This document shows, piece after piece, positions 1-33,638 of a DNA stretch of 64,000 nucleotides (position 1 is the first letter of the stretch; each line of letters opens with the position of its first letter). Both the position numbers and the translations under genes were made by a program. The stretch is taken from contig JAVZNE010000002.1 in assembly GCA_038882975.1 (NCBI GenBank), forward strand, positions 1 through 64,000, in the 5' to 3' direction. The stretch is from Candidatus Bathyarchaeia archaeon (GTDB lineage Archaea > Thermoproteota > Bathyarchaeia > Bathyarchaeales > Bathycorpusculaceae). Under the pieces are notes generated by a model. The model had not been told where the DNA came from. It was given only the letters and a program-made list of their open reading frames with translations, and did not search any database.

Positions 1-1
1 A

Positions 2-229
2 GACTGCCCTCCCGTGGAAAACTATAATATGGGAAGCTATTGGACGGGTGAAAACCACGCTGAAGCCGTCAGATTCATAGTTGACAGGGCTAGGTGGGCT
101 GAACCCATCATAGAAGAGGAGCTTTACACGCTCATAGACTTTTACTTGGCTCTTGAAAACTGGGATTTGAAAAGTCCTCTTCCGCCTTTCACTTCAAACG
201 AGGAGCTTTTCAGCTGGGGGCTGCTTTAA
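2..229 (+). CDS. Hypothetical protein, 3' part (truncated by window start)
   Basis: Frame is open from position 2 to TAA at 227-229 and is followed by the element's recurrent intergenic motif. Confidence 0.55.
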   Translation, partial: DCPPVENYNMGSYWTGENHAEAVRFIVDRARWAEPIIEEELYTLIDFYLALENWDLKSPLPPFTSNEELFSWGLL

Positions 230-252
230 CCTTTTTCTAGCTGGGGTGTGTT

Positions 253-480
253 ATGGTCAAAGCCACGTTTGAACCGCCTAAGTGTCCACACTGCGGAGCC
301 AACTTGTTCAGGGTTGTTGAGCGAAACAGAATAGTCTATGCCTTTAAACCAGAAGAGGGAAGGTTTATCGAGGTTGACGGAGAAGCTGAAATGGAATGCC
401 CAGAATGCCACGCAGACCTATACGATTTATTCCCAGACGGAGTCTGCAACTTCGTCAGCAACAGTGGTGAAAAACCTTGA
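253..480 (+). CDS. Small Zn-ribbon protein
   Basis: CPHC...CPEC pairs; GGGGTG SD at 243-248. Confidence 0.7.
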   Translation: MVKATFEPPKCPHCGANLFRVVERNRIVYAFKPEEGRFIEVDGEAEMECPECHADLYDLFPDGVCNFVSNSGEKP

Positions 481-809
481 AAATAACAACCAAGAAGGCT
501 TACCCCTTCAGAAGCTTCTATGAGGGCAAGAAGCGACTAGCCTTCTACGTGATAAGCGTTTTGGGCAAGGAATCGCAAATCACCATATACTCAGACCTAA
601 TAAAGAAAGCTAACCCAGAAATAGACTCTTTAGGCGTTAGGAAAAGCGAGTTTGAAAACGACACCTTCAGGGTTCAAGAGTTCCTCGAGAAGTATCTTCC
701 AAAAGAACTTGCTGAAGCCATATTCAAATACGCCAGAAAAGACTTAGGCTGCAAAGGTGGCTTTTCACTTAAAGCCTACATAGGTTGGAAGGGAAAGGAT
801 ACGCGGTGA
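477..809 (+). CDS. Hypothetical protein with C-terminal FSLKAY motif
   Basis: TTGA overlap with the upstream stop; 110-aa ORF. Confidence 0.6.
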   Translation: MKITTKKAYPFRSFYEGKKRLAFYVISVLGKESQITIYSDLIKKANPEIDSLGVRKSEFENDTFRVQEFLEKYLPKELAEAIFKYARKDLGCKGGFSLKAYIGWKGKDTR

Positions 810-1033
810 GTTTCGTTGATAAAAAGGAAATTCCTCTGTGGAAGAGGCTTATTATAAGGGTTGTTGGCAACGCCTACGCCTATGAAAGAGACTCAATACG
901 CTACTATTTTGGTTACTGCCCAAAGTACGGATACTTTATAGACCATCCAGCCGGATACTATGGAAAGCTTCACTGCCCAAAATGCATTGAAGAAACAGAG
1001 CTCAGAATCGCATCTCAAAAACGAGCATTTTAG
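806..1033 (+). CDS. Small putative Zn-binding protein
   Basis: GTGA overlap with the upstream stop; CPKY...HCPKC. Confidence 0.6.
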   Translation: MSFVDKKEIPLWKRLIIRVVGNAYAYERDSIRYYFGYCPKYGYFIDHPAGYYGKLHCPKCIEETELRIASQKRAF

Positions 1034-1068
1034 TTGTTTCTTTCTCCTTTTTCTTCGGGGTGTTTTCT

Positions 1069-1982
1069 TTGATAAAGGTGATGCTTTGTCAGACAGGGGA
1101 TTTAAGCGACCTTAAAAGGCAGGGTTTTGTTGCGGAGCCGAAAGGGTGGGTTCAAACCCCACGCCGGCAGATACGATGGAACAAGATGTGTGATTATCAA
1201 GGAGAAGGGCGAGGTTACGCTTCAGAACCGCCATGGCATAATCTATACGGTGAGGCTTCCGGAGATTGTTGAGGCTGCAAAGGCTATTCCTGGAAGCTTC
1301 ATAATCGACGGTGAAGTGGTTTACGTAAACCCAGAAACAGGGCGGGAGGAGTTTACGCCTTGCCAGAGGCGTTGCAGCACCCAGTTTCCGGATCCTCTCT
1401 TGATACGCAAGTACCCCGTAGTCTTCAAGGCTTTCGACATTATAAAGCTTGGAAGCGAGTATGTTGTTGACAAGCCCTACTGGAAGAGGAAGACGCTTCT
1501 AAGAGGGTTAATAGGCAAGTCTGGTGTCATACAGTTTGTTCAGTATAGGCGGGATGTTGAGAGAGCTTGTTGGAGGTTGTTGAGCAGCAGAGGGAAGGCC
1601 TAATCCTCAAGGATTTTAACAGCCGCTACGCTTTAGGCGAACGCTCATGGAGCTGGCTTAAAATAAAGAACTGGCGGACTGAAGAGTGCCTTGTCGTGGG
1701 CTACTGTCCCAGCAGCAAGGGCAGACAATTCGGAAGCCTAGTTTTGGCCAGCCCGAGGGATGGAAGCTTCAGGGGATGCGTTGGCTCAGGCTTCAACGAC
1801 TATGAAATGGCTAAGATATGGGAAGTCCTCAACCACAGCCAGAAAACGAAAAGCCCTACCCTGAAACGCTTGTAGGCGAGCCCTACATAGCCGTCAAAGC
1901 CAACCTAAAAGTCCTCGTCAAATACTATGAAACCACGGAGAACGGGCATTTGAGGCATCCGGTGTTCATCAAAATCCTCTAG
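1069..1982 (+). pseudogene. ATP-dependent DNA ligase (LigD/LigC-type ligase domain, ~295 aa when reconstructed), interrupted by a 28-nt BHB-type insertion and two 1-nt deletions
   Basis: Motifs spread over four reading segments: I EPK/YDGTR, III IIDGEVV, IIIa FKAFDII, IV REGLILK, V WLKIK, VI GHLRHPVF. TTG start at 1069 after GGGGTG; stop TAG at 1980-1982; 914-28+2=888 nt is in frame. Confidence 0.85.
1143..1170 (+). other. Candidate archaeal BHB-type mRNA intron (28 nt) in the ligase catalytic Lys codon
   Basis: Central helix GCCG(1137-1140)/CGGC(1165-1168), 3-nt bulges AAA(1141-1143) and AGA(1169-1171), inner hairpin GTGGG-TTCAAAC-CCCAC. Cutting after the 2nd nt of each bulge gives GAG CCG AAA TAC GAT GGA ACA AGA = EPKYDGTR. 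Confidence 0.75.
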
Positions 1983-2011
1983 CCTCCCTTTTTCTTTCAC
2001 GGGGTGCTTCT

Positions 2012-2797
2012 ATGCCCCTAAGGATAAAGACTGCTGGAATAGAAGTAGACGTCAAAATGAAGCCTGTGGGCAACGAGATTATGGTGCCTCAGCCAGAGAT
2101 CCAAATGCGCAGAATTGACACAGGCGACCTTCTAGAGAAGGTTAGGGTTGTGGCTGACCGCCGTTTCCTATGGATTGGACATGGAAAGGAGCTAGCCACG
2201 GAAACAAGGCTCATAGACCCGGAGACTGGAAAGCAGGTGCCAAGCAGCGAGGCTCTTGAAATTCTATCCCACTACAGCTACAAGCTTGTTGATTCTAAGG
2301 GCAACGTTGTTGACGAGAGGGAGATGGGCGAGCTTATAGAATACTATTACGTGGACGAGAAGGGCGATGAACACGTTGTCCGGCCATTCGAAAGAACACA
2401 GCTTTTGGACATTCCGCCTGAGAATTGGGTTCCATCAACAGTAGTGGACGAGTTTGTTATTACAGCTGTCTATGAACTCTACACGGACAAGAAATTGGAC
2501 ATGGTTAAGCTTTGGGAGCTCGCCGAGAAAATGCTCAAAGAGGATAAGGTTGGCGTAACCACATATAGCCACGGAAGAGGTTTCGTAAGCTACTATGCAT
2601 TTCTGTGCCCAATAATGGTGAATGGAAAGTTCGGCTGGCTTTTGAAGCTGACGGACACTAAGATGAGGTTCGACCATTTGATGGAGATACCGGCCAAGAT
2701 TCCGCTGCCCGTTAAGCAGGCTCCAACCCTTGAGAGGCTACCGCCAGTCCAGCTTATAGTGGCAACAGCCAAGAAAAAGAAGCAGCAGACAGGCTAA
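2012..2797 (+). CDS. Divergent Ku-like DNA end-binding protein
   Basis: Segments parallel the prokaryotic Ku core: IEVDVKMKPV; RLIDPETGKQVPSSE; ERTQLLDI..NWVPSTVVDEFVITAVYEL; LWELAEKMLKEDKVGV..YYAFLCP; basic C-terminal tail; directly downstream of the ligase. Confidence 0.6.
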   Translation: MPLRIKTAGIEVDVKMKPVGNEIMVPQPEIQMRRIDTGDLLEKVRVVADRRFLWIGHGKELATETRLIDPETGKQVPSSEALEILSHYSYKLVDSKGNVVDEREMGELIEYYYVDEKGDEHVVRPFERTQLLDIPPENWVPSTVVDEFVITAVYELYTDKKLDMVKLWELAEKMLKEDKVGVTTYSHGRGFVSYYAFLCPIMVNGKFGWLLKLTDTKMRFDHLMEIPAKIPLPVKQAPTLERLPPVQLIVATAKKKKQQTG

Positions 2798-2825
2798 ACC
2801 CTTTTTCTCCTTTTCGGGGTGCCTT

Positions 2826-3764
2826 TTGGATAAGAAGAGCAACCTAGAGGAGTTGCTTTACAGGGTTAGGCTTAAGAGAGCCAAAGAAGGCGATGCCAAG
2901 CAGCTTTTCAAGGGCGTTATGGACGAGGTTTACCACGCTACTGGGCATTCGACCAGGCGTTGCTGGGAGATAGCCATAGAGCTTGTAGCTGACCATTTAG
3001 GCATAATAGAGGAGCCTTGGCGGTACTCGCTTCCAGATCTGCCTAAAAGCCAGCTTTTCAAGGGAGAAATAAAGCCTACAAAATGCGAGGCTCCTAAGGA
3101 TTTGGCTGAACGTGTCAGGCAGACAGGCCTAATTGAAGAGTTTGTGGAGGCTGCAAGGGCTAAGCCATGGGACTACATTGGCGAAGTATTCTTAGAGGAG
3201 AGGCTTTCAAACAACAGGCTTGGACAGATGCTAACGCCTAGAAGCGTTGTCCAGCTTATGCTCCAAATGGTCATGGCGGACTATTTTCTCAAGAAGGAGA
3301 GGGTTTGGGTTGACGCTGAAACATTGCTTTGGGCTGCAGAATACACGCTTAAGCACGGCCCACCCTTATGGGCGAGCAAAGCCTTGGAGAGGGCCTCCAA
3401 AAACATTGAAAGCCTCAAAAGACCCCAAACAATTCTCGACCCTGCAGTTGGGACTGGACGCTTTCTTATAGAAGCGAGCCTCATGTATTCGGACGAGCCC
3501 CTTGTGCTATTTGGCATAGACATTGATGTTTGGATGTATAGGGCTTGCCTAGTCAACATGGCCTTGTTCAGCAGACACCCATACAGCATTGTCTGTGCAA
3601 ACTCGCTCTTAATAGATCCAAAATATGCTGGGCCATCAAGCCCGCTGTGGGATTACGGAAACCTTTGGGAGCCGGCTGACGTTTCAAAATTCTACATTAA
3701 GCCCCCGCCCATAACGGCTGATAAATTCAACCTGGCAGAGTGGATCAAAATCAGGCGTAAATAG
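2826..3764 (+). CDS. HsdM/N-6 DNA methylase-like protein, short, lacking a canonical NPPY/F motif IV
   Basis: GQMLTP, ILDPAVGTGRFL (SAM-binding motif I), GIDID, CANSL; protein ends soon after. Confidence 0.75.
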   Translation: MDKKSNLEELLYRVRLKRAKEGDAKQLFKGVMDEVYHATGHSTRRCWEIAIELVADHLGIIEEPWRYSLPDLPKSQLFKGEIKPTKCEAPKDLAERVRQTGLIEEFVEAARAKPWDYIGEVFLEERLSNNRLGQMLTPRSVVQLMLQMVMADYFLKKERVWVDAETLLWAAEYTLKHGPPLWASKALERASKNIESLKRPQTILDPAVGTGRFLIEASLMYSDEPLVLFGIDIDVWMYRACLVNMALFSRHPYSIVCANSLLIDPKYAGPSSPLWDYGNLWEPADVSKFYIKPPPITADKFNLAEWIKIRRK

Positions 3765-3792
3765 CCCTTCTTTTTCTGTCCGGGGTGGCGTT

Positions 3793-4233
3793 ATGGGAAC
3801 CATAAGGAGCGAATACTCCATTGAGCAGTTTGAGGCTGCCCTTCAGAGGTTCGCCCATGAAGTTACTGGCATGATGCAGAGGATAGACGAGATACATGTC
3901 AGGTCAGAAAACGTGGCTGTCGACTTGGAGTTCAGATACGGCGTTAAGGGCGAGATAACGAAGATATACGTGTCGTTTTACAAGAGGGACAAGCCAGACT
4001 CTTGGGGAGAATGGCTGTCCTTCACGGTCGAGCCTAAGGACTATGTTGACAGCCCCCACATAACAAAGATCCATTATGAAGGGGCAAGCGACAAGCAGTA
4101 CAGCGAGAAAATCCTAGCATGGCTTAAAAGCCTCCTAGGCTCAGAGAAACCAGCAATAAGCTTCTCCCTAAAAGACTTCTCAAAGAAGGTTGACAGAAAG
4201 CTCACGGACTACAAGGCTTTTTCGAAGGGTTAA
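3793..4233 (+). CDS. Hypothetical protein with C-terminal FSLKDF and RKLTDY motifs
   Basis: 146-aa ORF, GGGGTG SD. Confidence 0.7.
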   Translation: MGTIRSEYSIEQFEAALQRFAHEVTGMMQRIDEIHVRSENVAVDLEFRYGVKGEITKIYVSFYKRDKPDSWGEWLSFTVEPKDYVDSPHITKIHYEGASDKQYSEKILAWLKSLLGSEKPAISFSLKDFSKKVDRKLTDYKAFSKG

Positions 4234-4235
4234 AC

Positions 4236-4646
4236 ATGGAATCCCTTGTCAGAATGTTCAGAGAATCGCTTTTCAAAGCCTTCTACGATTGGCTTGAAAA
4301 GAACAAGACTGCCATAGGCGAGAAATGGTATGTTTACGCCTTTAATGAAGCTAAGAAAGCTGAGGATTTAGCCGACAATGCAATAGGCGTTGTTGGAGCA
4401 GCCATGTGGATTTTCAACACGATAGCGAACTGCGGCGTAATGGCAGGCGTAGGGCCAGACGGCTACAGCTTACAATATTTGGAAAACTCCAAAATCGATG
4501 AGGCCTCAACAAGAAGGCTTCTAATGATGATTGTGGCGTGTCTAAACCTTCAATATCTGCCCATTGAAGAGGCTAAGAAGCCCATTCTAATAATTAGCCG
4601 CAGCAAGTTTTCTTTGAAGCTTTTTGTGGAGGATAGGAAATCATAA
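4236..4646 (+). CDS. Hypothetical protein with C-terminal FSLKLF motif
   Basis: 136-aa ORF starting 2 nt after the upstream stop. Confidence 0.65.
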   Translation: MESLVRMFRESLFKAFYDWLEKNKTAIGEKWYVYAFNEAKKAEDLADNAIGVVGAAMWIFNTIANCGVMAGVGPDGYSLQYLENSKIDEASTRRLLMMIVACLNLQYLPIEEAKKPILIISRSKFSLKLFVEDRKS

Positions 4647-4681
4647 ATACCAGCTTGTGGTATGAGTTTTATGGTGTTGGT

Positions 4682-4870
4682 ATGCCTAAGGGACCTGAAT
4701 GGCTGACTGTGAGGCTGACTCCGGAGCTTATGGAGAAAATGAACTCCTATATTCTGGCAGTGGCCAACAAAATGGGACGCATACCTCAAGGCCTAAAAAC
4801 CAAGATAGTCCATGAAGCCCTCGAGGAATGGTTCAAAAACCACGGCGACGACCTCGAAAGGTTCACATAA
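4682..4870 (+). CDS. Ribbon-helix-helix DNA-binding protein
   Basis: LTVRLTPELMEKM...KIVHEALEEWF pattern; ATG at 4682. Confidence 0.65.
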   Translation: MPKGPEWLTVRLTPELMEKMNSYILAVANKMGRIPQGLKTKIVHEALEEWFKNHGDDLERFT

Positions 4871-4896
4871 CTTTTTCTATTATGGGGTGAAAACAG

Positions 4897-6393
4897 CTAC
4901 CTAACAAACTCAATCCTAAAGCCCCTCTCGGTTATGGCGTAAAGCCTCTTCTGATATTTTTCAAACTCCTCCTCGGTAATGAGGATTATGTGCTCTGGCT
5001 CTTCTTTTGCTGAATGCATTAAACGACCAAACCTTTGGCTTTCCTGCATCCTGCTCCCATAAAGATAAGCCACTTCAACAACGCGTTCGACGTCTGGCAA
5101 ACTTATTCCCTCATCGCCAACACGACTGACAACACAAGCCTGACTTTCCCGGATAACTTCAAGCCTGTCCTTTGTTTCTCCGTAAACAAATGGTATGTTG
5201 AAGGTTTTGGCTATCTTCTCGCCCAAATCAAGCCAATCACAGAAAATCAATGTCTTAACGGGTATTTGCAGTAGCTCGCCAAGCTTACGCATTTTCTCAC
5301 GGTTATCGCTTAAAATATAAACTCTGAAGGTTGGTTTTCGCACAACCTGAAGCCTAATCAGTTCCTCCCAGCTCATGCCCACCGGAAAGCCTGTCAAAGC
5401 AATAATGTAGTTTTCGCGCCCATCCTCACGATAAGGCGAACCGCTAAAGCCCATACGGTATTTAGCCTTCAAAGTAGCCAAGCGGACAAACGAGTTTGCA
5501 GGAAGATGTTGACACTCGTCAAAAATGATTAGGCTGTATTCGTTGTTTTTGACCTTGTTATATGCGTGGTAGGTTATAACTTCTATTTCGTGGCGGTATT
5601 GTGGAATATATTTTGCTATGCGTTCAAGCCACTGCTCCTTAAGCGTTAAAGTTGGCACGACAACGAGTTTTCTGCCCTTAATTCTTGCAAGGGCATATAT
5701 TCCAAAAAGGCTTTTCCCGCTACCGAAAGCCCAGAAAACTCCTATAGCCCCTTTGTTCAGGAACTCGTTCCAAGCGTATTCCTGGTAGCTTCGCAGCGTT
5801 ATGCCATCGTAGGGCCTAAGGTCTTCTTCTTTTACTGGAATGGGCATGAAGGGTAATGTGCCGTCCTCAATCATTTGGGCGATTAGCTTAAACTCGTAGC
5901 CCTTCTTTATGCGGAGCCTGTCCTCGCCTTCACGCCTCGTTATAAAATGCTTGTATCGGCGTAGGGCTTCTTCTTGCAGTTCCTTGCCAGTCAGCAACAT
6001 GCCATCGTAGACTTTGAAGGGCAAGGGCTTGGCGAACTTGAACTTTTCTTCCAGGCTTGGCGGGATTTCGCTGAACCACTTGACGTAGCGGTTTACGGCG
6101 AAGATGTTGTAGCTTTTTGTTGAGCGTTCAAGCCAGCCTATGCTGAAATTAAGCCATTTTGGGGCGATAACATACCATTCATTAGCCCTTTTAGGAATAA
6201 TAACGTATGGCTCTTCGAAGAAGGATTCTAAAAATTCTCGGCGTATCTGGCTGAAGCGGAAAAGCTCCATTTTACGCTCAAAGTCGCTGCGGATTTGACT
6301 CTGCAAAATGTCGATTGAATGTTTTAATTCTTCCAGCTTTGCGAGGGCTTCAGCAACTTTTTTGCTGACATCAGCCGTGTCGAACTCGCTCAA
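4897..6393 (-). CDS. XPB/Rad25-like SF2 helicase (ResIII-type) with N-terminal coiled coil
   Basis: LRSYQ Q-motif, GSGKS Walker A, DECQH, SGSP, EGISLP, QRFGR. Confidence 0.85.
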   Translation of the reverse strand: MSEFDTADVSKKVAEALAKLEELKHSIDILQSQIRSDFERKMELFRFSQIRREFLESFFEEPYVIIPKRANEWYVIAPKWLNFSIGWLERSTKSYNIFAVNRYVKWFSEIPPSLEEKFKFAKPLPFKVYDGMLLTGKELQEEALRRYKHFITRREGEDRLRIKKGYEFKLIAQMIEDGTLPFMPIPVKEEDLRPYDGITLRSYQEYAWNEFLNKGAIGVFWAFGSGKSLFGIYALARIKGRKLVVVPTLTLKEQWLERIAKYIPQYRHEIEVITYHAYNKVKNNEYSLIIFDECQHLPANSFVRLATLKAKYRMGFSGSPYREDGRENYIIALTGFPVGMSWEELIRLQVVRKPTFRVYILSDNREKMRKLGELLQIPVKTLIFCDWLDLGEKIAKTFNIPFVYGETKDRLEVIRESQACVVSRVGDEGISLPDVERVVEVAYLYGSRMQESQRFGRLMHSAKEEPEHIILITEEEFEKYQKRLYAITERGFRIEFVR

Positions 6394-6509
6394 GCTTTTA
6401 GCTTCTCCTTGATTTTTCTGTTGTATTTCTCGATGAGGGCTGAGTAGGCTTCCAGGTCTAAAGCCGTCCGCTCAAGCCTCTCTGCAAGGGACAAAAGCCT
6501 ATTAGCCAA
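6390..6509 (-). CDS. 39-aa coiled-coil protein (not in ORF track)
   Basis: MANRLLSLAERLERTALDLEAYSALIEKYNRKIKEKLKA; overlaps both the ParB stop and the helicase start (TTGA). Confidence 0.55.
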   Translation of the reverse strand: MANRLLSLAERLERTALDLEAYSALIEKYNRKIKEKLKA

Positions 6510-7482
6510 CGATAGGCTGTTCAAAACCTCTTTCCCCAGCCATTTTAATGGCTTTCTGCGCTACTTCTTCCCGCTGTTCTTCAGTTAGTTTTTCCCAAAA
6601 GACGATGAAGATTGAGGCTTTAATGACGTCTTTCAAGTATTTGCCTTTGTATCTCTCGTATATGTAGTCGATTAAAATCATTGGATAATGCTCTTTTAAC
6701 TCCATGATCCTTTCGTAGGCCACCTCTTCCGGAGTTTTCGGCTTTAAGGGAGGTGCTACAATTTTTTCAGCTTCTTCAACAAGCTTGGGCTTTGGGAGTT
6801 CAAGGATTCTTTCGGCTTCTTCAGGTTTTGTGATGAAGGCTTTGGCGACTTTCCTTGCTTCTTTTGCGCTTAGCCCCTTTTCAGTTATTGTTTCAACGAG
6901 TTTTGGCTGCTTATCTTCTGGCAGGGAAGCTATGACCTCGATGTGTTTTCCAGATAAGGGCTGTCCCGTGAAAGCTTTTTGGAGGATCTTCTTCCTTGCC
7001 TCCTTCTCCACTTTCATGCGTTTGAGTATTTGCCACACGCGCCGCTCGCTTACCCTAAACATTTCAGCCAATTGGGTGCCGGTGAACCCTTTCTGGTAGA
7101 AATAGTTGAAGCATATGGCTTCAAGCATTGGGTCGACAAAGCCCCTTTCCTTGTTACGCTTGTAGTTTATGATGTATGCTTCGTCGCGGGTGCACTCTAT
7201 TATTATGGCCCGCATTTCAGTCCATTTGAGAAGCCTTGCGATTTCCCACCTTGTGTGTCCGTCAATGATTTCGTATTTGGCAGATGGGTATTTCCCTTTG
7301 GCTTCTTCGATCTCTTCAGGGGTCATCCTCCTAACAAGCAGGGGGTCTATGCTGTTCAAGTCCTTGGTTTTCATGTCTTCCCTGAGCATGTCCTCTTCTT
7401 CCCTGCCGATAACCGTGAAGTGCATTGGCAGGGGCTTCAACTGCTCAATAGGGATAAGCTCAATTTCCGCCATTTTCACCAT
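6502..7482 (-). CDS. ParB/Srx-family protein with HTH
   Basis: PLLVR...YEIIDGHTRWEIA ParB motif; HTH GFTGTQLAEMFRVSERRVWQIL. Confidence 0.85.
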   Translation of the reverse strand: MVKMAEIELIPIEQLKPLPMHFTVIGREEEDMLREDMKTKDLNSIDPLLVRRMTPEEIEEAKGKYPSAKYEIIDGHTRWEIARLLKWTEMRAIIIECTRDEAYIINYKRNKERGFVDPMLEAICFNYFYQKGFTGTQLAEMFRVSERRVWQILKRMKVEKEARKKILQKAFTGQPLSGKHIEVIASLPEDKQPKLVETITEKGLSAKEARKVAKAFITKPEEAERILELPKPKLVEEAEKIVAPPLKPKTPEEVAYERIMELKEHYPMILIDYIYERYKGKYLKDVIKASIFIVFWEKLTEEQREEVAQKAIKMAGERGFEQPIVG

Positions 7483-7530
7483 CCCAAAATATCAACCCAA
7501 CATACTGAACCCGGTTCAGTATGTTGAAGG

Positions 7531-8532
7531 CTAGCCGATGTCTTCTATGCCCCTCTCCGTTATCCTGATCGTCCGAGACTGTCTGGGCAGATAACTGGAA
7601 TCTATTAGCGTGGCTATGCTGACGTTTGGCTTGTCCGTTTCTTGCAGGTATATGCGGTTGTTGGCTCCATAAGCCATGACGTAGCCGCCTATAGGCGGCC
7701 TCAAAAACTCGGGTCTAGTAGTTGTGTACTGAGCTACGGGTGTTGCTTGAACCTGGTTTGTGACGAGCACAGCCATGTCATAAGCCCTTGCCAGTTTTAT
7801 TAGCAGGCCTATGGCGTAGTTCAGCTTCTGCTGCCTTGGGCATAACAGCTCGCGTCCAGGATACTCCCTTCTGAAAGGGGATACAAAGCTATCAATGGCC
7901 AAGTAGCGGACACCTTTTTCTTTGATGAACTTGTGGGCTGTTTCAAGGGTTGCTGTAAGGTCTGAGGATGAGGGAACCCTCCGCAGGTGAATGGGGCTTA
8001 TCGCCTCGTCTGGGTCAAGATCCCTCGCCTTTGCGATTTGGCGTATCCGGGTTACGCTTAGGGTGGCCTCCGTGTCCAAGATTAGAACGTCTCCGCCTAA
8101 GGCTTTAGGCGCTAAAACGGATGTTGTGTAGACAAGCTCTGTTTTGCCGCAGGCGTAGCTTCCACAAACCTCAGTTATCTCCTGAGTCCTTATACCGCCG
8201 CCCAAAATCTCGTCAAGAGCCCTTGCGCCCGTTGGAATTGTTTTGCGCCTAAGCTCTTCCTCGTAAAGCTCTTTGGCGGACATTATGCGAATGTCAAGTT
8301 TGCTTCGCGCCTCCCTTATGAGGGCTTCAGCCTTTTCGAGGGTAAAACCCATTTTCTCGCCGATTCTTTGGAAGAGGAAGTGGGGCACTTCAGCAGCAAT
8401 AGACTCTAAAGTATAATAGCCCGCCTCCTTAAGCAGAGCTGCAAACTCGGGCGTTACACCTTTAAGCTTTAGAAGGGGATCCCTAAACTCTTCGAACTCG
8501 CACCCGCTTATTTGGCTAACAACTTCACTCAA
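7531..8532 (-). CDS. RadA/Rad51 paralog (divergent)
   Basis: N-terminal HhH LKGVTP, LDEILGGG, Walker A GSYACGKT, DTE, Walker B LAIDS, RQQKLN, TNQV. Confidence 0.85.
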   Translation of the reverse strand: MSEVVSQISGCEFEEFRDPLLKLKGVTPEFAALLKEAGYYTLESIAAEVPHFLFQRIGEKMGFTLEKAEALIREARSKLDIRIMSAKELYEEELRRKTIPTGARALDEILGGGIRTQEITEVCGSYACGKTELVYTTSVLAPKALGGDVLILDTEATLSVTRIRQIAKARDLDPDEAISPIHLRRVPSSSDLTATLETAHKFIKEKGVRYLAIDSFVSPFRREYPGRELLCPRQQKLNYAIGLLIKLARAYDMAVLVTNQVQATPVAQYTTTRPEFLRPPIGGYVMAYGANNRIYLQETDKPNVSIATLIDSSYLPRQSRTIRITERGIEDIG

Positions 8533-8686
8533 CACTCTCCCCTCCTTTAAGCCTCTTTTCCAAAAACTCCTTAACGGCCATGCAAACAATGGAGCTTATC
8601 GACTTGCCTGTTTCACGGCTTAAATCCTCAATCCTCTCAAGATCTTCCTGCTCGATGGAGGCTGAAACCTTCACTTTGCGAGCCAA
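8525..8686 (-). CDS. CopG-like RHH protein, 53 aa (not in ORF track)
   Basis: MARKVKVSASIEQEDLERIEDLSRETGKSISSIVCMAVKEFL; GGAGG SD. Confidence 0.75.
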   Translation of the reverse strand: MARKVKVSASIEQEDLERIEDLSRETGKSISSIVCMAVKEFLEKRLKGGESVE

Positions 8687-8697
8687 AACTCCTCCTC

Positions 8698-8859
8698 CTA
8701 AACGCTCACGGAAACCATTTCAGTCAGGAAGCGTCGAATGTCGCAAAAGTTGAGTTTTGGATATCGGCTGCGAACCCACTCGGCAAGCCAGGCCAGCTCC
8801 TCGCGGATAAACTCGCGGTCTTCTACCGAAACCACGTCTGCGTATGATTTTCCGCTCAT
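8698..8859 (-). CDS. Hypothetical protein, 53 aa (not in ORF track)
   Basis: MSGKSYADVVSVEDREFIREELAWLAEWVRSRYPKLNFCDIRRFLTEMVSVSV; fills the operon gap. Confidence 0.55.
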   Translation of the reverse strand: MSGKSYADVVSVEDREFIREELAWLAEWVRSRYPKLNFCDIRRFLTEMVSVSV

Positions 8860-8862
8860 TTT

Positions 8863-9027
8863 TCAGTCCCTCTTTGCAAGGTTCTTCTCGAAATACTCGT
8901 TGATGATGAGCCGTAGAACCTCTGTGTTGTTTGTCAGGCCCTTGGCGCTTTTTATCCTTAGGAAGCGGGTTCTAACTTCGCCTTTCAGCTTCACGCGGAT
9001 GTCCAGGATGTTTTTGCCTTCAGACAT
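8863..9027 (-). CDS. RHH-like protein, family B copy 1
   Basis: LDIRVKLKGEVRTRFLRIK..KGLTNNTEVLRLIINEYF; paralogous to 9388-9588 and 9585-9758. Confidence 0.7.
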   Translation of the reverse strand: MSEGKNILDIRVKLKGEVRTRFLRIKSAKGLTNNTEVLRLIINEYFEKNLAKRD

Positions 9028-9033
9028 ATTTAT

Positions 9034-9110
9034 CCACACAATATAGTTTTTTGTGGCTTTTTGCAATATAAAACTTTTGATAGTTGCAAAAAGTGGAAAA
9101 ACTTATAAAC
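9034..9110. promoter_or_regulatory. Divergent promoter region with operator-like inverted repeats
   Basis: CTTTTTGCAA(9057-9066)-N17-TTGCAAAAAG(9084-9093) perfect IR flanking a minus-strand TTTTATAT box; CCACA/TGTGG IR at 9034-9056; plus-strand TTATAAA near 9103. Confidence 0.55.
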
Positions 9111-9145
9111 AAATAGCTTCAAATACATTATTGAAGGTGGAGCGT

Positions 9146-9292
9146 ATGGCAAGAAAGAGGGGAGTAACAGTATTCCTAGACCCAGAAGACCTCAAGTTCC
9201 TAAAGAAGAAGAACAGCGAAACCGGGCGCAGCCTTTCAACGCTAATTCGCGAAGCCGTAAAGAACTGGATTAGGATGGAGAAAGCGAAATGA
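9146..9292 (+). CDS. CopG-like RHH protein, paralog of 8525-8686
   Basis: MARKRGVTVFLDPEDLKFLKKKNSETGRSLSTLIREAVKNWI. Confidence 0.75.
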   Translation: MARKRGVTVFLDPEDLKFLKKKNSETGRSLSTLIREAVKNWIRMEKAK

Positions 9293-9387
9293 GCATAACG
9301 CTAAGAAGCCTTAAATATGGGGTGGGCTATACCTTGAAGGGCGTGTGTCAAATGTACACATTTTGCGACAAAATGGAGGAGTCTTAA

Positions 9388-9588
9388 ATGGCGAAGGGCT
9401 CAAAGGAAGGAGAAGTTTTAAAGGTTTACTTGAGGGCTGAGGGCGAAATAGCAGAACGCTTCCTAAAGATTAAGGAGCATTTGGGGCTCAAAAACTACAC
9501 TGAGGTTATCCGCGCATTAATAAACGATTACTGGAGAGAACACGAAGAGGAGATAAGGAAAAGCCTAAAATCATCAAAAAAGGGCTAA
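9388..9588 (+). CDS. RHH-like protein, family B copy 2
   Basis: LKVYLRAEGEIAERFLKIKEHLGLKNYTEVIRALINDYW; GGAGG SD. Confidence 0.7.
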   Translation: MAKGSKEGEVLKVYLRAEGEIAERFLKIKEHLGLKNYTEVIRALINDYWREHEEEIRKSLKSSKKG

Positions 9589-9758
9589 CATTTACCGCTC
9601 TTATTTCTGGCAAGCTTTTTCTCAAAGTATTCGTTGATTATGAGCCTAAGAACCTCTTCGTTTGCCAGCCCCTTAAACCTTTTAATCTCAAGGAATCTGT
9701 CTTTCACTTTCCCTTTCAAAGAAGCCTGTATTTCTAAAGCCTTGTTCTCCCCAGACAT
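9585..9758 (-). CDS. RHH-like protein, family B copy 3, 57 aa (not in ORF track)
   Basis: MSGENKALEIQASLKGKVKDRFLEIKRFKGLANEEVLRLIINEYFEKKLAR; shares EVLRLIINEYFEK with 8863-9027. Confidence 0.7.
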   Translation of the reverse strand: MSGENKALEIQASLKGKVKDRFLEIKRFKGLANEEVLRLIINEYFEKKLARNKSGKC

Positions 9759-9906
9759 TCCCTTTCACCGCCGTGGCATGCCAAAACAGGATACATGGAA
9801 GCCGCTAATTAAATTAATGAACAATTTTTTGTATGCTGAAGCTGAGGGTAAAACGTTTCTGCCTGCAGAAACGCCTATAAGCGCAAATTTTTCGGCCAGC
9901 CCATAT

Positions 9907-10191
9907 TTAAGTTGGATTTGCATTTTCATGTAAAAATTCAGCTCCAATAAGCCTTTCGGGCGTTGGTTTTTCTCGGGTGTTGTTCGGCGTGCAGAAGCGT
10001 TTTCTTGGGGTTAAAGCTATGACTAGGCAACTGCCTTTAACACTTATTTCAACGTCTAGATCCTGACCTATGAAGGGCTTGACCGTTTTATGGAATTTGC
10101 GTGGGATGTCCAGCGATAGGCGCTCATACTCGTAGGCGTATTTGCCGCCGAGATAACGTTTCCTCGATAGCCTGCGCTGAATCCTAACCAA
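9907..10191 (-). CDS. Basic hypothetical protein, possibly AbrB-like fold
   Basis: RLSLDIPRKF...GQDLDVEI..GSCLVI pattern. Confidence 0.45.
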   Translation of the reverse strand: MVRIQRRLSRKRYLGGKYAYEYERLSLDIPRKFHKTVKPFIGQDLDVEISVKGSCLVIALTPRKRFCTPNNTREKPTPERLIGAEFLHENANPT

Positions 10192-10212
10192 ACCTTCACC
10201 TCTAGAATCCGC

Positions 10213-11193
10213 CTATTCCTCCTTTTCTGCTTCCTCAATCTTTTCCTCAGGTGCGTCTTCTATGCCCTTTGCTGTTATGCGGAAAATGCATTCGCCCTCT
10301 GGCAGGCATGGTGAGTCGAAGACCCTTGCAATGCGTTTACCTTCGCCCTTAGCCCGCCTCAGCCAAACCCTCGTGGTGGATGCATGGGCTACGATGTTGC
10401 CTCCAGCCGGCCTGTCCGCGGCTTGGCCTCCCCATTGAGGCGTTGGATCCGACTGGGCTTGGTTCGTTACTACTACGGCTAGGTTTAGGATTTCAGCCAG
10501 GCGTAGTAGCTTGTGCATGTAAAGGTTTAGCTTCTGCTGTCGGTCGGCTAATGTTTCCCTTCCTAAGTATTCGCCTCTAAAATGGGATATGACCGAGTCC
10601 ACAACCACGAGTTTCACGTTTTCCTCTGCGCATTTTTCAAAAGCATTGTCCAGCAGGAACATTTGATGGTCTGATGTGTAAACCCTTGATAGTATTATGT
10701 TGTGGAGTGTTTGGCCTGGATCCAGCCCGTTTTCCGCCGCTATTTGGTAGACGCGGTTGGAGCTAAACGTTCCCTCAGTGTCAAAGTAAAGTACGGATCC
10801 GCCTAGGCCGCCCTGTTCTGGTTTGAGCTGTGCTGTAACGCAGAGCATTAGACAGAGTTGGGTTTTTCCGGAACCATACTGTCCCACAAGTTCTGTTATG
10901 GCCTGGGTTTCTATACCGCCGCCTAAAAGAGCGTCAAGGGCCTTGCTTCCAGTAGTGCATCTTAGGCGTTTTTTGGTCATTTCCCAATGTTCATAGGCTG
11001 TTATGAATCTGCAGCCTAAAAGCTCCCTTGCAGCCTCTACTATTCGTTGGGCTGCTTCAAGCTTCTCGTATCCAGCCTTCTCCTTAACCTCCCTTGCAGG
11101 AGTGACAGCCAAGGTTTCAACGTTTGGGAAGCCTGCGTCCCTAAGCCTTTTAGCTACTGATTTGCCCACGCCTGGAATCTTCTCTAACTCCAT
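10213..11193 (-). CDS. radA: DNA repair and recombination protein RadA (element copy)
   Basis: LEKIPGVG HhH, FITA polymerisation motif, GQYGSGKTQ, DTEGTF, VVVDS, RQQKLN, GGNIVAHASTTR. Confidence 0.85.
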   Translation of the reverse strand: MELEKIPGVGKSVAKRLRDAGFPNVETLAVTPAREVKEKAGYEKLEAAQRIVEAARELLGCRFITAYEHWEMTKKRLRCTTGSKALDALLGGGIETQAITELVGQYGSGKTQLCLMLCVTAQLKPEQGGLGGSVLYFDTEGTFSSNRVYQIAAENGLDPGQTLHNIILSRVYTSDHQMFLLDNAFEKCAEENVKLVVVDSVISHFRGEYLGRETLADRQQKLNLYMHKLLRLAEILNLAVVVTNQAQSDPTPQWGGQAADRPAGGNIVAHASTTRVWLRRAKGEGKRIARVFDSPCLPEGECIFRITAKGIEDAPEEKIEEAEKEE

Positions 11194-11378
11194 GATGTGT
11201 CCTCCCTTGAACGTGTGGATTCGCCCCATTCAATGTCTGTGTCTGCTATTTTGTTCCAGCAACGCCTGCAAATGGGCAGCCTATCACCCTTATAGAGTAT
11301 GAACACTTCAATGTCCGTGTTTCTGCATTTTCCATTCCACGGGTTCCTGCAATGCTCAGCCTTGGACACGTGCTCCAT
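11184..11378 (-). CDS. Small Cys-rich (Zn-finger-like) protein
   Basis: CRNPWNGKC...ICRRCW; start at ATG 11378 or GTG 11369. Confidence 0.55.
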   Translation of the reverse strand: MEHVSKAEHCRNPWNGKCRNTDIEVFILYKGDRLPICRRCWNKIADTDIEWGESTRSREDTSWS

Positions 11379-29723: not shown

Positions 29724-30161
29724 ATGTCAGAGAAAGGAAACTTTGAATTTCTTGAGCACATGGCGGACGCGTATATTGCCGCCCACGGAAGAAACCTAGC
29801 TGAAGCCTTTGAAAACGCCGCAGCCGCCATGTTTGAAGTAATGACGGACATAGAAAAGGTCAACCCAGAAGTTGAGGATTATGTTGAAGTTGAAGCAATA
29901 GATGAGTACGCTCTACTTTATAGTTGGCTTGAAGAACTCCTTGTTAAATCAGAGATTAATGGGATGCTATATTCAAAGTTTGAAATATTTGAGATTGCTA
30001 AAACGGCGGACGGTTTTAGGCTCAAAGCCAAAATATGGGGCGAGAGGTTCAACCCTGAAAAGCATACTCAAAGAGTTGGCGTAAAAGCTGTTACATACCA
30101 TCAAATGGAGATTATTAAGGAAACAGATAAAACAACCGTGAAATTTATACTCGATATTTAA
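29724..30161 (+). CDS. Archease (RtcB cofactor)
   Basis: FEFLEHMAD, VKAVTYH, C-terminal LDI. Confidence 0.93.
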   Translation: MSEKGNFEFLEHMADAYIAAHGRNLAEAFENAAAAMFEVMTDIEKVNPEVEDYVEVEAIDEYALLYSWLEELLVKSEINGMLYSKFEIFEIAKTADGFRLKAKIWGERFNPEKHTQRVGVKAVTYHQMEIIKETDKTTVKFILDI

Positions 30162-30814
30162 GCCAGACCGAGGCTTTTCAACCCTTTCAATATTTCTTGA
30201 ACAATAACATCTGGCGGCGTTTCCAATTTTTCACATTTTACCTCTACAAACGGAACCTTCTTCTCCCTATAATATTCAAGTAGGGGTTGTGTTTGCTTTT
30301 CATAAACCATTATACGCCGTTTAATAACTTCTGGCGTGTCGTCGGAACGCTGGTACAAAGGTCCGCCACAGTTATCACAAACCATATCGTTTTTTGGCTT
30401 TAAAAAGAGCATGTTATAAATTGCACCACAGTTTTTACATATCCTCCTAGAAGACAAGCGCTCAATGATTATCCAGTCGGGCACTATGAGATGGATTATG
30501 GCGTCTATTTTTGCTATTTCATCAAGAGCTTTGGCTTGCTCAATTGTTCTAGGATAGCCGTCTAAAATGAAGCCTTTGTCCCTTGGAATTTTAGCCAAAC
30601 TTCCCTTTAAAACTTCAAGAGTTATGTCGTCTGGCACAAGCAAACCTTTCTCTACATAAGCTCTTACTTTCCTTCCAAAAGGCGTATCCTCTTTTATCAT
30701 CTCTCGGAAGAGGTCTCCTGTAGCGATGACTGCAACGCCAAGTATCTCCTTAAGCCTTGAGGCATAAGTCCCCTTCCCGGAGCCCGGTGCCCCAAAGATT
30801 ACCAGATTGACCAC
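30158..30814 (-). CDS. adk: Adenylate kinase (Zn-lid type)
   Basis: GAPGSGKGT, LDGYPR, CKNC...CDNC lid, QRSDD. Confidence 0.95.
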   Translation of the reverse strand: MVNLVIFGAPGSGKGTYASRLKEILGVAVIATGDLFREMIKEDTPFGRKVRAYVEKGLLVPDDITLEVLKGSLAKIPRDKGFILDGYPRTIEQAKALDEIAKIDAIIHLIVPDWIIIERLSSRRICKNCGAIYNMLFLKPKNDMVCDNCGGPLYQRSDDTPEVIKRRIMVYEKQTQPLLEYYREKKVPFVEVKCEKLETPPDVIVQEILKGLKSLGLA

Positions 30815-31059
30815 TGCTTCACATCTCCGATTTTGGCAATCTTGTAAGAGTTTAGAGATAGAGTTAAAAATGTTTGCTGCGACCGGTATTTCACCTGAGA
30901 TAACGGATAATGAAAGATATTTCTTTTACAAGTGTTTCTGGGATTACTGCTTTACCCTTTCTTTTTGTTCAGCTTAACGAAGCTCATTTTTCTTCACGCA
31001 AAACGTTTAAGGCGCAAGGTGAAACTTTAAACTTCACCAATTAATGGAACGTGTAAAGA

Positions 31060-31977
31060 TTGAGCGTATTAAAGTTAGACAAGCACATTTTTATGATTGA
31101 CGCCGAGGTATCTGGGATACAGCGTTTTATTGCCAGCTATGTCTTGATAGGCGAAAAAATGGCCATAGTTGAGACTGGTCCCACGTCCTCCATCCAAAAT
31201 CTTGTCCGTGGCTTAACGCGTTTGGGCATAAAACCTGATGACGTTTCCTACATTGCTGTTTCACATATTCACTTGGACCACGGAGGAGGCGTCGGCTCTC
31301 TTGCAAGACATTTTCAAAAAGCAAAGGTCATAGTTCACGAAAAGGGGGCACCGCATCTTGCAAATCCTGAAAAGCTTTGGCAGCAGTCAAAGATGGTTCT
31401 AGGAGATGTGGCTGAAATCTATGGTGAACCAGAACCAGTTTCAGCGGATCGTATCATAGCCGCTAAAGATGGCATGACCTTTGAAATTGGAAAGGGCATA
31501 ACGCTAAAGGTTGTGGAAACGCTTGGACACGCTTCCCACCATTTAAGCTATTATGAACCTTTAAGCAATGGCATTTTCGTGGGTGATGCCGCCGGAATAT
31601 ATTTGAGTGATATAGACGTCATAGTCCCAACAACACCCTTTCCATTTAGACTGGACATGGCTTTGGCCTCTTTGAACAAGTTGGTACATCTAAAGCCTTC
31701 AGCCTTGTATTATACACATTTTGGCAAGGCAGAAAATGCTGTGGAAAAACTTCGTGCGTATGCTGATCAGCTTAAGCTTTGGGCTAGCATTGCAAAGCAA
31801 TCCTTGGATGAAGGTGAGGGTTTAGAGGAGATTAGCCAGAGAATTGCAGAGAATGACGGGGCTGTTAAAAGGGCTCTGGAGCACATTAAACTGCATAGGG
31901 TTTTGGGTGAAACAGTTCTTAAAACAAGCGTTTTGGGCGTAGTGGAGTTCGTGAAAAATTTTGGACTCCCAATCTAG
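31060..31977 (+). CDS. Metallo-beta-lactamase-fold hydrolase
   Basis: SHIHLDHGGG, GHASHH, GDAAG, THFG. Confidence 0.88.
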   Translation: MSVLKLDKHIFMIDAEVSGIQRFIASYVLIGEKMAIVETGPTSSIQNLVRGLTRLGIKPDDVSYIAVSHIHLDHGGGVGSLARHFQKAKVIVHEKGAPHLANPEKLWQQSKMVLGDVAEIYGEPEPVSADRIIAAKDGMTFEIGKGITLKVVETLGHASHHLSYYEPLSNGIFVGDAAGIYLSDIDVIVPTTPFPFRLDMALASLNKLVHLKPSALYYTHFGKAENAVEKLRAYADQLKLWASIAKQSLDEGEGLEEISQRIAENDGAVKRALEHIKLHRVLGETVLKTSVLGVVEFVKNFGLPI

Positions 31978-32048: not shown

Positions 32049-33530
32049 ATGGGCGAAGAAGGAGAGGGAAGACCTCCCTCTGAAAAAGTGCCCCTTGAAA
32101 AAGTGAACGATTACACTTGGCGTATCCCAAAGTATAAACCCGGGATGCGCGTTCCGGGCATAATTTTTGCGGATAAAATGTTACTGGAGAAGATGCAGAC
32201 GGACAGAACCCTTGAGCAGTGCGCGAATGTTGCCCACCTGCCCGGCATATACAAGTATTCCATAACATTGCCGGATGGACACGAGGGTTACGGCTTTCCA
32301 ATTGGTGGTGTGGCTGCAACAGACTATAACGAGGGCGTAATTAGCCCAGGTGGAGTTGGTTACGACATAAACTGTGGTGTGCGCCTTCTGACAACAAACC
32401 TTTCGGAACAAGACCTAAAACCCAAGCTGGTTCAGTTGACAAACGCCATTTTTGAGAATGTTCCGTGCGGTCTTGGAAGCCGTCGAAAAGATTTCAAAGT
32501 GACAATCCATGACTTGGACAGGCTTGCAATAGAAGGCGTACAGTGGGTTATAGACCAGGGTCTGGGCTGGGATGAAGACGCGGAGCACTGCGAAGAGCAT
32601 GGCTGCATGAAAAACGCCAACCCGGACAAGGTTTCAACAACCGCCAAGAACAGAGGGCTAACACAGATAGGCACGTTGGGCTCTGGGAACCACTTCCTAG
32701 AAATTCAGAAAGTTGACAAAATCTATAATGAGCGAACGGCAAAAGCCTTTGGAATCGAGCATGAAGGACAAGTAACCGTCATGATTCATTGCGGCTCAAG
32801 AGGTTTTGGACACCAAATCTGCTCAGACTACTTGCGGGTTATGGAGAGAGCCGTCCACAAATACAAAATAGTTTTGCCAGACAGAGAGCTTGCATGCGCA
32901 CCCGGAAATAGCAACGAAGCCGAAGACTATTATGAGGCTATGGCCTGCGCCGTGAACTATGCTTTTGCAAATAGGCAGGCAATAATGCACTGGGTTCGCC
33001 AAAGCTTCCAGCAAGTTTTTAAAGAAGACCCCGAAAAGTTCGGCCTAAAACTCGTCTACGACGTGGCCCACAACATCGCAAAAATAGAAAACCACAAGGT
33101 TAACGGCGAACAACGAAAAGTTTGGGTTCACAGAAAAGGCGCCACAAGAGCCTTCCCGCCAGAGCATCCGGAAATCCCATCAGACTACAGAAGCGTCGGA
33201 CAGCCAGTAATAATACCAGGAAGCATGGGAACAAGCTCATGGATTCTAGTAGGCACCGAAAAAGCCATGGAAATAAGCTTCGGCTCAACAGCCCACGGCG
33301 CCGGAAGAATGCTAAGCCGAGCAGCCGCAAAACGTAAGTTCTATGGCGGAGACGTGAAGAAAAGCCTTGAACAGCGAGGCATAGCCGTCAGAGCGGCAAG
33401 TGCAGTCGTATTAGCCGAAGAGGCAGACCCAGCATATAAAAACGTTGACATAGTGGCAGAGGTCAGCCACAAAGTCGGCATAGCCACAAAAGTCGCCAGA
33501 CTCGTGCCACTGGCCGTTGTAAAAGGCTAA
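32049..33530 (+). CDS. rtcB: tRNA-splicing ligase RtcB
   Basis: PDGHEGYGFPIGGV, DINCG, GNHF, HCGSRG, HRKGAT, PGSMG, HGAGR. Confidence 0.97.
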   Translation: MGEEGEGRPPSEKVPLEKVNDYTWRIPKYKPGMRVPGIIFADKMLLEKMQTDRTLEQCANVAHLPGIYKYSITLPDGHEGYGFPIGGVAATDYNEGVISPGGVGYDINCGVRLLTTNLSEQDLKPKLVQLTNAIFENVPCGLGSRRKDFKVTIHDLDRLAIEGVQWVIDQGLGWDEDAEHCEEHGCMKNANPDKVSTTAKNRGLTQIGTLGSGNHFLEIQKVDKIYNERTAKAFGIEHEGQVTVMIHCGSRGFGHQICSDYLRVMERAVHKYKIVLPDRELACAPGNSNEAEDYYEAMACAVNYAFANRQAIMHWVRQSFQQVFKEDPEKFGLKLVYDVAHNIAKIENHKVNGEQRKVWVHRKGATRAFPPEHPEIPSDYRSVGQPVIIPGSMGTSSWILVGTEKAMEISFGSTAHGAGRMLSRAAAKRKFYGGDVKKSLEQRGIAVRAASAVVLAEEADPAYKNVDIVAEVSHKVGIATKVARLVPLAVVKG

Positions 33531-33548: not shown

Positions 33549-33638
33549 TGGCGGGCGGGGTGGGATTTGAACCCACGATCACAAGCTCTCTTCGTGCGTT
33601 AGGAGGCTTGCGCCCTATCCTTGCTAGGCTACCCGCCC
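33549..33638 (-). tRNA. tRNA-Arg(CCT) with a 12-nt canonical intron (33588-33599); CCA encoded
   Basis: Acceptor GGGCGGG/CCCGCCC, anticodon arm CAAGC-CT-CCT-A[intron]A-GCTTG, T-arm GTGGG-TTCAAAT-CCCAC. Confidence 0.92.

Follow-up and report, generated by a model that had tools for sequence, protein, structure and literature searches.

A stretch of 28 nucleotides (nt) interrupts the catalytic lysine codon of a gene for an ATP-dependent DNA ligase in a genome of Candidatus Bathyarchaeia archaeon (GCA_038882975.1), and is very probably an archaeal endonuclease-type intron in the mRNA, with a relaxed bulge-helix-bulge (BHB) motif of the HBh' kind. The gene lies near the start of contig JAVZNE010000002.1, of which positions 1-64,000 of the forward strand (64,000 nt) were analysed and are referred to below as the window. 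The genome itself, G000, comprises 1.42 Mb in 15 contigs and is 94.7% complete. An initial annotation of the window had proposed a BHB mRNA intron at this point, and that reading is supported by the comparison of related sequences described here.

In the proposed mechanism, the exonic sequence GCCG would pair with the intronic sequence CGGC to form a central helix of 4 bp, leaving the lysine codon AAA bulged before an intronic hairpin and the triplet AGA on the 3' side of the helix. The two-subunit splicing endonuclease of the host, EndA, would then cut after the second base of each bulge, and the RNA ligase RtcB, with the help of archease, would join the exons. This would rebuild the AAA codon, followed by Tyr-Asp-Gly, and restore the frame of a LigD-like ATP-dependent DNA ligase of approximately 295 amino acids, the short intron probably being released as a circle. 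The gene would be part of an element that is associated with an integrase and occurs in Bathyarchaeia-type Thermoproteota of hot springs, with the intron polymorphic in the element population. Cleavage and ligation themselves we infer from what was observed, namely a conserved structure, compensatory changes, intron-less alleles, purifying selection and the host enzymes.

The split lysine codon and its fold

The ligase gene spans approximately positions 1069-1982 of the window (forward strand) and contains three interruptions. At the first of these, GAG CCG AAA (Glu-Pro-Lys, 1135-1143) ends the peptide …R-Q-G-F-V-A-E-P-K in the frame of the open reading frame (ORF) 1060..1272, and TAC GAT GGA ACA AGA (Tyr-Asp-Gly-Thr-Arg) begins 28 nt beyond it, at 1172, in the frame of ORF 1127..1603. 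The motif I lysine codon is split by positions 1143-1170, with a change of frame. The initial annotation had described this split, and had drawn a fold with a GCCG/CGGC helix, AAA and AGA bulges and a hairpin at 1144-1164 with one G-G mismatch. Coordinates and ORF frames bear out the split, the elements of the fold are present as drawn, and the helix, bulge and hairpin appear in the unconstrained minimum free energy (MFE) fold of the window. One sequence is nevertheless weak evidence, since the z-score of the window fold is only -1.18, and a scan of the 1.42-Mb genome for BHB-split genes, under loose rules by which up to two stem mismatches passed, returned 1269 BHB-like patterns whose removal merges two open frames, which is the chance level. 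The case therefore rests on comparison.

Thirty alleles were compared, consisting of the window and 29 further loci. A scan of species-representative genomes gave L002, L003 and the fragment L004, which holds only an internal part of the gene, lacks the junction and stands outside all allele counts. A metagenome scan with alignment of the downstream protein gave 27 further loci (L029-L055, 61-94% amino-acid identity). Some rows are duplicates of one sequence in two collections, and there are 18 distinct junction sequences. An insert occurs at exactly this point, inside the Lys codon, in 23 of the 30 alleles. It is 28 nt long in 13 alleles, 26 nt in five, 25 nt in four and 18 nt in one (L047), and the other seven alleles have no insert and read contiguously as Glu-Pro-Lys-Tyr-Asp-Gly. 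The rule applied in the initial annotation, a cut after the second nucleotide of each bulge, yields the codon order …K-Y-D-G, as in the seven intron-less alleles, which are contiguous at exactly the predicted junction.

The core of the fold is retained wherever the insert is present. All 23 insert alleles keep four of four pairs in the central helix and AAA in the 5' bulge, and in all of them the hairpin, with a stem of 4-9 bp, follows AAA directly and abuts the 3' strand of the helix. On the 3' side, the triplet reads AGA in 19 of these alleles and AAA in four. Unconstrained MFE folding recovered the helix, the 3-nt bulge and the hairpin in every allele. Compensatory changes keeping this helix-bulge-hairpin geometry, which the initial annotation had looked to homologous ligases to provide, are also seen.

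Covariation was scored on a plain MAFFT alignment (A3) of the 18 distinct rows that was not fitted to the structure, the tested structure being itself derived from one of the aligned rows. The inner hairpin is paired in 95.1% of cells, with changes on both sides in 7/7 pairs and at least six different stem sequences among the alleles, and the central helix is paired in 100% of cells, with both-side changes in 2/4 pairs. In L047 the exonic codon has changed from Pro to Glu and its intronic partner is altered to match (GGAG/CTCC). A distal helix between the two exons is paired in 93.1% of cells with both-side changes in 3/8 pairs, values of limited weight, as this is coding sequence with little variation. 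Taken over the alleles, the signal is well beyond chance. The observed pairing or covariation was reached by none of 500 shuffles, controls slid along the alignment were 34-45% paired compared with 89.8% observed, and the RNAalifold consensus is the same structure.

The proximal outer helix is weaker, being paired in 63.9% of cells with both-side changes in one of its four pairs. By position, 1136/1172 is paired in 18/18 alleles, 1133/1175 in 16/18 and 1134/1174 in 12/18, and G1135/A1173 never pairs (0/18). The pair A1136-U1172 of the outer helix drawn initially therefore stands, but the proximal helix as a whole is poorly supported. Because of this, under the definitions given in PMC5829648 and PMC4090602, the motif fits the relaxed class (HBh' or bulge-helix-loop) and not the strict hBHBh'.

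The exonic half of the central helix also differs between the two kinds of allele. At the helix, 22 of the 23 intron alleles have CCG as the Pro codon, whereas the seven intron-less alleles have CCC (6) or CCA (1). This contrast holds in four of four independent tree pairs, a number with which the sign test is underpowered (p 0.125). Judged from codon usage in these sequences, the exonic helix half appears to be constrained only when the insert is present.

Coding capacity and competing explanations

The Pfam domain DNA_ligase_A_M (PF01068) covers 1172-1600 (E 1e-18), and the next two ORF pieces match its remainder and the C-terminal/OB domain (PF04679/PF14743), so that the adenylation and OB domains are both present, as matches on fragments. 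The ligase also matches PHROG 114, ATP-dependent DNA ligase (E 4.8e-39). Motif I, K-x-D-G-x-R, is contiguous in the intron-less alleles and is found in the intron alleles only across the exon junction. The product of the intron-less allele L045 has 295 amino acids and can be aligned over its full length with the LigD ligase domain 1vs0, the K of EPKYDG falling on the K of EGKWDGYR; a second entry, 6nhz, has M at this position. Against TIGR02779, the equivalog for the non-homologous end joining ligase LigD, the score of 162.6 bits is below the curated cut-off of 227.75. The enzyme would thus be a LigD-like minimal ATP-dependent DNA ligase, though not one filed as LigD. Exon 1 has four candidate starts, all in frame (GTG 1060, TTG 1069, GTG 1078 and ATG 1081), and its start is uncertain; L045 begins at the equivalent of the TTG.

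As the insert lengths of 28, 26, 25 and 18 nt fall in all three frame classes, excision fits them and a single frameshift rule does not. Without splicing, the upstream frame meets a stop within 1-42 codons in all 23 insert alleles; the 18-nt insert of L047 is in frame, but has a TAG inside. Seventeen of the 23 intron alleles have an exon 2 whose frame stays open up to a stop at 268-281 codons; in four others it is still open where the contig ends, and two copies, those of the window and L050, are broken, the L050 copy being interrupted after 99 codons (approximately 1967-2300 of that locus). Among 14 complete intron alleles, with the duplicates L002, L031 and L035 set aside, the median dN/dS is 0.098 (range 0.053-0.156, from 76 of 91 pairs with 0.05 < dS < 3). 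The 25-codon exon 1 is kept in all alleles. On these substitution ratios, the intron-bearing alleles are under purifying selection.

The window copy does contain the two further frameshifts noted initially, which are both 1-nt deletions: compared with L031 and L003, one base is missing after 1568 and one at approximately 1838-1842. The G that the window lacks after 1568 is present in all covering contigs of the sequencing runs X1 (depth 477.3 of 477.3) and X18 and partly in X2, and one X1 contig matches the window in every other base. As contigs of three runs thus have this G, the first deletion may be a consensus error of the assembly. The window copy is either a decayed variant or affected by such consensus errors, and neither deletion is an intron.

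Several observations weigh against an intron here. Given the two deletions, the gene of the window may be dead even if it is spliced. Many of the 18 aligned rows are close kin, so the cell counts overstate the number of independent events, and the covariation of the central helix depends on a single allele, L047, on a long branch. At the 3' splice site a clean 3-nt bulge is lacking, and the outer helix beside it is poorly paired; cleavage there would call for a relaxed specificity of the kind known from crenarchaeal enzymes, which is presumed for this lineage. A host is on record only for the window, for L003 (genome G401) and, via a 6-kb contig of a metagenome-assembled genome (MAG), for L002. 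Finally, none of the 20 run records that contain part of the stretch is recorded as RNA, the two labelled METATRANSCRIPTOMIC being marked 'probably DNA', and no joint across the insert was found in contigs of runs X12, X18, X1 and X2, which are short, probably DNA and uninformative on this point.

Among other explanations, translational recoding, in which the ribosome would bypass the insert by hopping or would shift frame with no need for splicing, seems very improbable. Ribosome hopping is known from phage T4 gene 60, and in the ligase a stable hairpin follows directly after the Lys codon, while AAA stands both before the gap and before Tyr in 4/23 alleles. However, the landing triplet is AGA and not AAA in 19/23, most alleles have no stop directly after the take-off codon, and each of the four length classes would need a shift of its own. 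Recoding would also leave unexplained the 4-bp helix between exon and insert, the compensatory change in L047 and the constraint on CCG. The near identity of the hairpin to host tRNA T-arms in the largest allele group, together with a 3' site lacking a clean bulge, could instead point to removal from the RNA by a route other than EndA and RtcB, through a different structure-specific nuclease or through tRNA-processing enzymes recruited by the T-arm-like hairpin. We regard this as quite improbable, as the T-arm likeness is missing in L003, L029, L044/L050/L051 and L047, which keep the helix and bulges, and the invariant part is the helix-bulge spacing that EndA measures. To our knowledge, no other archaeal enzyme pair cuts and rejoins RNA precisely.

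The frameshifts of the window copy, the broken exon 2 of L050 and the gene fragment in L004 could also be taken to mean that the insert is a non-functional scar and that the interrupted genes are dead, or that only the downstream part is made, without the catalytic lysine. This has only a very slim chance of being correct, considering that, of the 19 intron alleles that allow a judgement, 17 have an intact exon 2, that dN/dS is approximately 0.1, and that exon 1 is conserved throughout; compensatory changes in every pair of the hairpin would be unexpected for a scar. It is barely conceivable that the insert is an artefact of assembly or sequencing, or a DNA-level repeat or attachment site inserted by the element. 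The window does lie at a contig end, the MAG copy has single-base deletions and the hairpin resembles a tRNA fragment, tRNA genes being common integration sites (PMC4090602). Against this, 23 contigs from several collections carry the insert, always inside the same codon, and one Logan contig (record 19, run X18; four runs from three studies were compared) spans 1077-1209 without a gap. The 25-nt core of the insert has no second match in the genome at up to three mismatches, and no direct repeats of at least 14 nt flank the element in G401, where the element ends were not found. An mRNA intron cut by EndA at a relaxed BHB remains the favoured explanation.

The host splicing machinery and the presumed element

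The features discussed here are collected in Table 1. The initial annotation had credited the host with RtcB, archease and an intron-bearing tRNA, and all are found in the window, where they lie within 4 kb (29742-33638) and form a small tRNA-splicing neighbourhood.

Table 1. Positions of the ligase exons, the predicted intron with its structural parts, and the host splicing genes in the window.
Feature	Position	Strand	Remarks
Co-oriented block: small unknown genes, ligase, 261-amino-acid unknown, N6-methyltransferase-like gene, two more unknowns	1..4646	+	
Ligase exon 1: N-terminus (…MLCQTGDLSDLKRQGFVAEP) and first two bases of the catalytic Lys codon	1069..1142	+	peptide kept in 30/30 alleles
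Distal exon-exon helix, 5' strand	1124..1131	+	pairs with 1180-1187; 93.1% paired
Central 4-bp helix, 5' strand GCCG	1137..1140	+	exonic; last Glu-codon base and Pro codon CCG
5' bulge AAA	1141..1143	+	Lys codon; predicted cut after 1142
Predicted 28-nt intron	1143..1170	+	third base of 5' bulge to second base of 3' bulge; same-point inserts in 23/30 alleles
Inner hairpin h'	1144..1164	+	7-bp stem, one G1145/G1163 mismatch, 7-nt loop; tRNA T-arm-like
Central 4-bp helix, 3' strand CGGC	1165..1168	+	intronic
3' bulge or loop AGA	1169..1171	+	predicted cut after 1170; A1171 completes the Lys codon
Ligase exon 2: motif I from Y-D-G, nucleotidyltransferase and OB domains	1171..1982	+	stop TAG 1980-1982
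Distal exon-exon helix, 3' strand	1180..1187	+	93.1% paired
Host archease	29742..30158	+	PF01951, E 4.5e-45
Host RtcB RNA ligase	32217..33527	+	PF01139, E 2.1e-180
Host tRNA-Arg(CCU)	33549..33638	-	12-nt intron; adjoins rtcB

ARAGORN placed introns in 14 of the 39 tRNA genes of G000. These are 9 to 93 nt long, with one of 292 nt, and lie at several positions, as called by a program that is not archaeal-specific. The cbf5 gene of G000 is one open frame of 280 amino acids with no sign of an intron. There are two EndA paralogs, of 192 and 186 amino acids (G000:C2:110541-111119 and C4:28111-28671). The 192-amino-acid protein keeps the His-containing motif and is closest to the chains 2cv8_A, 3p1z_B, 3ajv_B and 2zyz_B, which we take to be crenarchaeal catalytic subunits, and the alpha-like EndA aligns without gaps to an N-terminal stretch of 2cv8_A that is presumably the Crenarchaea-specific loop. 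The 186-amino-acid protein has Thr where the His of REHSKY in 5x89 aligns, which fits a structural subunit. Together, these alignments suggest that the host EndA is a two-subunit (alpha-beta)2 enzyme of the crenarchaeal type. Only (alpha-beta)2 and epsilon2 enzymes are stated to cut relaxed motifs (PMC5829648).

Among the alleles of the largest group, the hairpin nearly reproduces the T-arm of host tRNAs. The 17-mer of the L043 hairpin has six exact occurrences in G000, and the four places checked are inside tRNA genes called by ARAGORN. The window hairpin (1146-1162) is one base off this 17-mer; the host tRNAs concerned include those at 33552-33638 (reverse strand) and 33771-33850 (forward strand). 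The hairpins of other alleles are unrelated to the T-arm, and the likeness may therefore reflect the origin of the intron rather than its function.

The ligase block is presumed to be part of an integrated mobile element, as the initial annotation had assumed. The block (1-4646) is syntenic in related loci, and the contig begins at the start of the window. In the syntenic locus L003 of G401, a tyrosine integrase lies approximately 4.3 kb upstream on the same strand, with host-like genes further on; in G000, whose contig breaks off within the element, no integrase was found by tblastn. A close homolog of the ligase occurs in two of 401 genomes of the phylum, G000 and G087, which belong to different families. 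The other 50 matches among these 401 genomes have 27-37% identity and long open frames, and are taken to be cellular ligases. The integrase and the sparse distribution both speak for a mobile element, but this support is indirect.

The 20 run records come from nine studies, and all but two are hot-spring metagenomes. L004, from a Nitrososphaeria MAG, contains an internal ligase fragment of 347 nt (2996-3342 of that locus, 91% identical to 1209-1555 of the window) embedded in unrelated AT-rich DNA, and is a remnant of the element. A viral origin was also considered and rejected: two scans of IMG/VR gave no close relative, with one match at 35% identity, and phage and plasmid collections gave only ligases of <40% identity.

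The presence and absence of the intron was mapped on a tree built from exon 2 DNA (its first 390 nt), which is unrooted and does not itself give the direction of change (gain or loss). Five changes are needed, at least three of them forced by well-supported branches, and alleles without the intron are nested within groups that carry it. Neither the helix nor the bulges differ between the two deep clades, which favours either an old intron with repeated precise loss or exchange between alleles.

Upstream of the ligase, between it and a 110-amino-acid ORF, the window contains a variable cassette of 250 nt (798-1047) with a Cys-rich ORF of 82 amino acids (785..1033). The cassette is also present in L030, L031, L038, L040 and L048; L003 has approximately 18 nt instead, and most other loci are without it. 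The element block is followed in the window, on the reverse strand (4897-11229), by DNA-transaction genes, which encode an XPB/Rad25-like helicase, a ParB-like protein and two RadA/Rad51 paralogs, an arrangement that is syntenic in G401. A second contig end of the same genome (G000:C5:1-414) is 66-82% identical, as translated, to the region of window 4212-4928, which suggests that G000 may carry a second, diverged copy of the element end. In G401, the locus L092 (12061-14670; G401:C4:35060-37669) contains a subtilase ORF of 870 amino acids with an intein that includes a LAGLIDADG endonuclease domain.

Known systems and what the ligase adds

An intron in the cbf5 pre-mRNA of Crenarchaeota was reportedly the subject of work by Watanabe in 2002. 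This intron is 16-44 bp long, splits the codon of the catalytic Asp, forms a relaxed BHB and is cut between the second and third bulge residues (PMC2738675). It is cleaved by hetero-oligomeric EndA, and within the available part of the source splicing is described as confirmed for no other gene (PMC2738675, Yokobori 2009). The ligase intron resembles it in being very short (18-28 nt), in its relaxed BHB, in hosts with a hetero-oligomeric EndA and in the existence of intron-less alleles or lineages. The two differ in the enzyme encoded, which is a pseudouridine synthase in one case and an ATP-dependent DNA ligase in the other, and in the position of the break, which follows the first base of the Asp codon in cbf5 and the second base of the Lys codon in the ligase. 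Whereas cbf5 is a core chromosomal gene, the ligase is on a presumed mobile element in a host of the Bathyarchaeia type, and its intron is present in some and absent from other close alleles of one population, the tree showing at least three to five changes. Splicing of cbf5 has been demonstrated experimentally, while that of the ligase is predicted from sequence.

In the literature searched, from which most subscription journals were absent, no BHB intron in a DNA ligase and no coding case later than cbf5 was found. The ligase would then join cbf5 as only the second protein-coding gene of archaea known to require BHB splicing. Once again the intron lies in a catalytic codon, so that the enzyme would be strictly dependent on splicing. 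The case is also a warning that short frame-breaking inserts in genes of archaea or their mobile elements may be miscalled as pseudogenes. A second case would also indicate that the tRNA-splicing system has been co-opted for mRNAs more than once. The natural series of intron-bearing and intron-less alleles provides material for the study of intron gain and loss. It is a more doubtful proposition that endonuclease-type introns in coding genes are recurrent in mobile elements of archaea with a relaxed-motif EndA, rather than a curiosity of cbf5. On this wider view, the intron could be recently born or spreading horizontally, and tRNA-derived, given that the T-arm-like form is the commonest and that there have been at least three to five gains or precise losses, and it would link expression of the element's ligase to the tRNA-splicing machinery of the host, as a host-dependent switch. 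Should this view hold, many genes of such genomes that now pass for 'frameshifted pseudogenes' would be spliced genes with a wrong annotation.

A 2020 paper treats cbf5 as the only earlier mRNA case, and adds a BHB intron in the 5' untranslated region of HVO_1309 of Haloferax volcanii (PMC7714728). There too an mRNA is processed by the tRNA splicing endonuclease at a BHB, but, as far as the available part of that paper goes, the intron lies in an untranslated leader and restores neither a reading frame nor a catalytic residue, unlike that of the ligase.

Relaxed HBh', hBH and BHL motifs are also found in non-canonical tRNA introns of TACK archaea (PMC5829648, PMC4090602). Such introns share with the ligase a 4-bp helix, one well-formed 3-nt bulge, a flanking helix and a poorly structured second site, and they are substrates of (alpha-beta)2 enzymes with a lineage-specific loop. 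The ligase intron differs in being flanked by protein-coding sequence, so that the Glu-Pro codons restrict one half of its central helix.

Short inserts in protein-coding genes have also been noted in the mobile genome of an archaeal virus, in the form of the putative 12-bp 'introns' of Peng et al. (as reported in PMC2738675). In the portion of that account available to us, these inserts are multiples of three, their splicing has not been shown and the description includes no BHB, whereas the ligase inserts break the frame and have a conserved BHB core. The general design of an mRNA intron handled by tRNA-type enzymes can, moreover, be compared with a eukaryotic system. In the splicing of HAC1/XBP1, the exons are joined by an RtcB-type or tRNA ligase after a structure-specific endonuclease has cut, and the reading frame changes. 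This IRE1-dependent splicing (mentioned in PMC13149111) is like the proposed ligase splicing in involving an mRNA intron, a structure-specific endonuclease, a tRNA ligase and a change of frame, but it is eukaryotic, uses an unrelated endonuclease and another RNA motif, and forms part of a regulated stress response. The mechanism proposed for the ligase is the one known from cbf5, and what is new is the gene, its setting in a presumed mobile element, the host lineage and the polymorphism among alleles.

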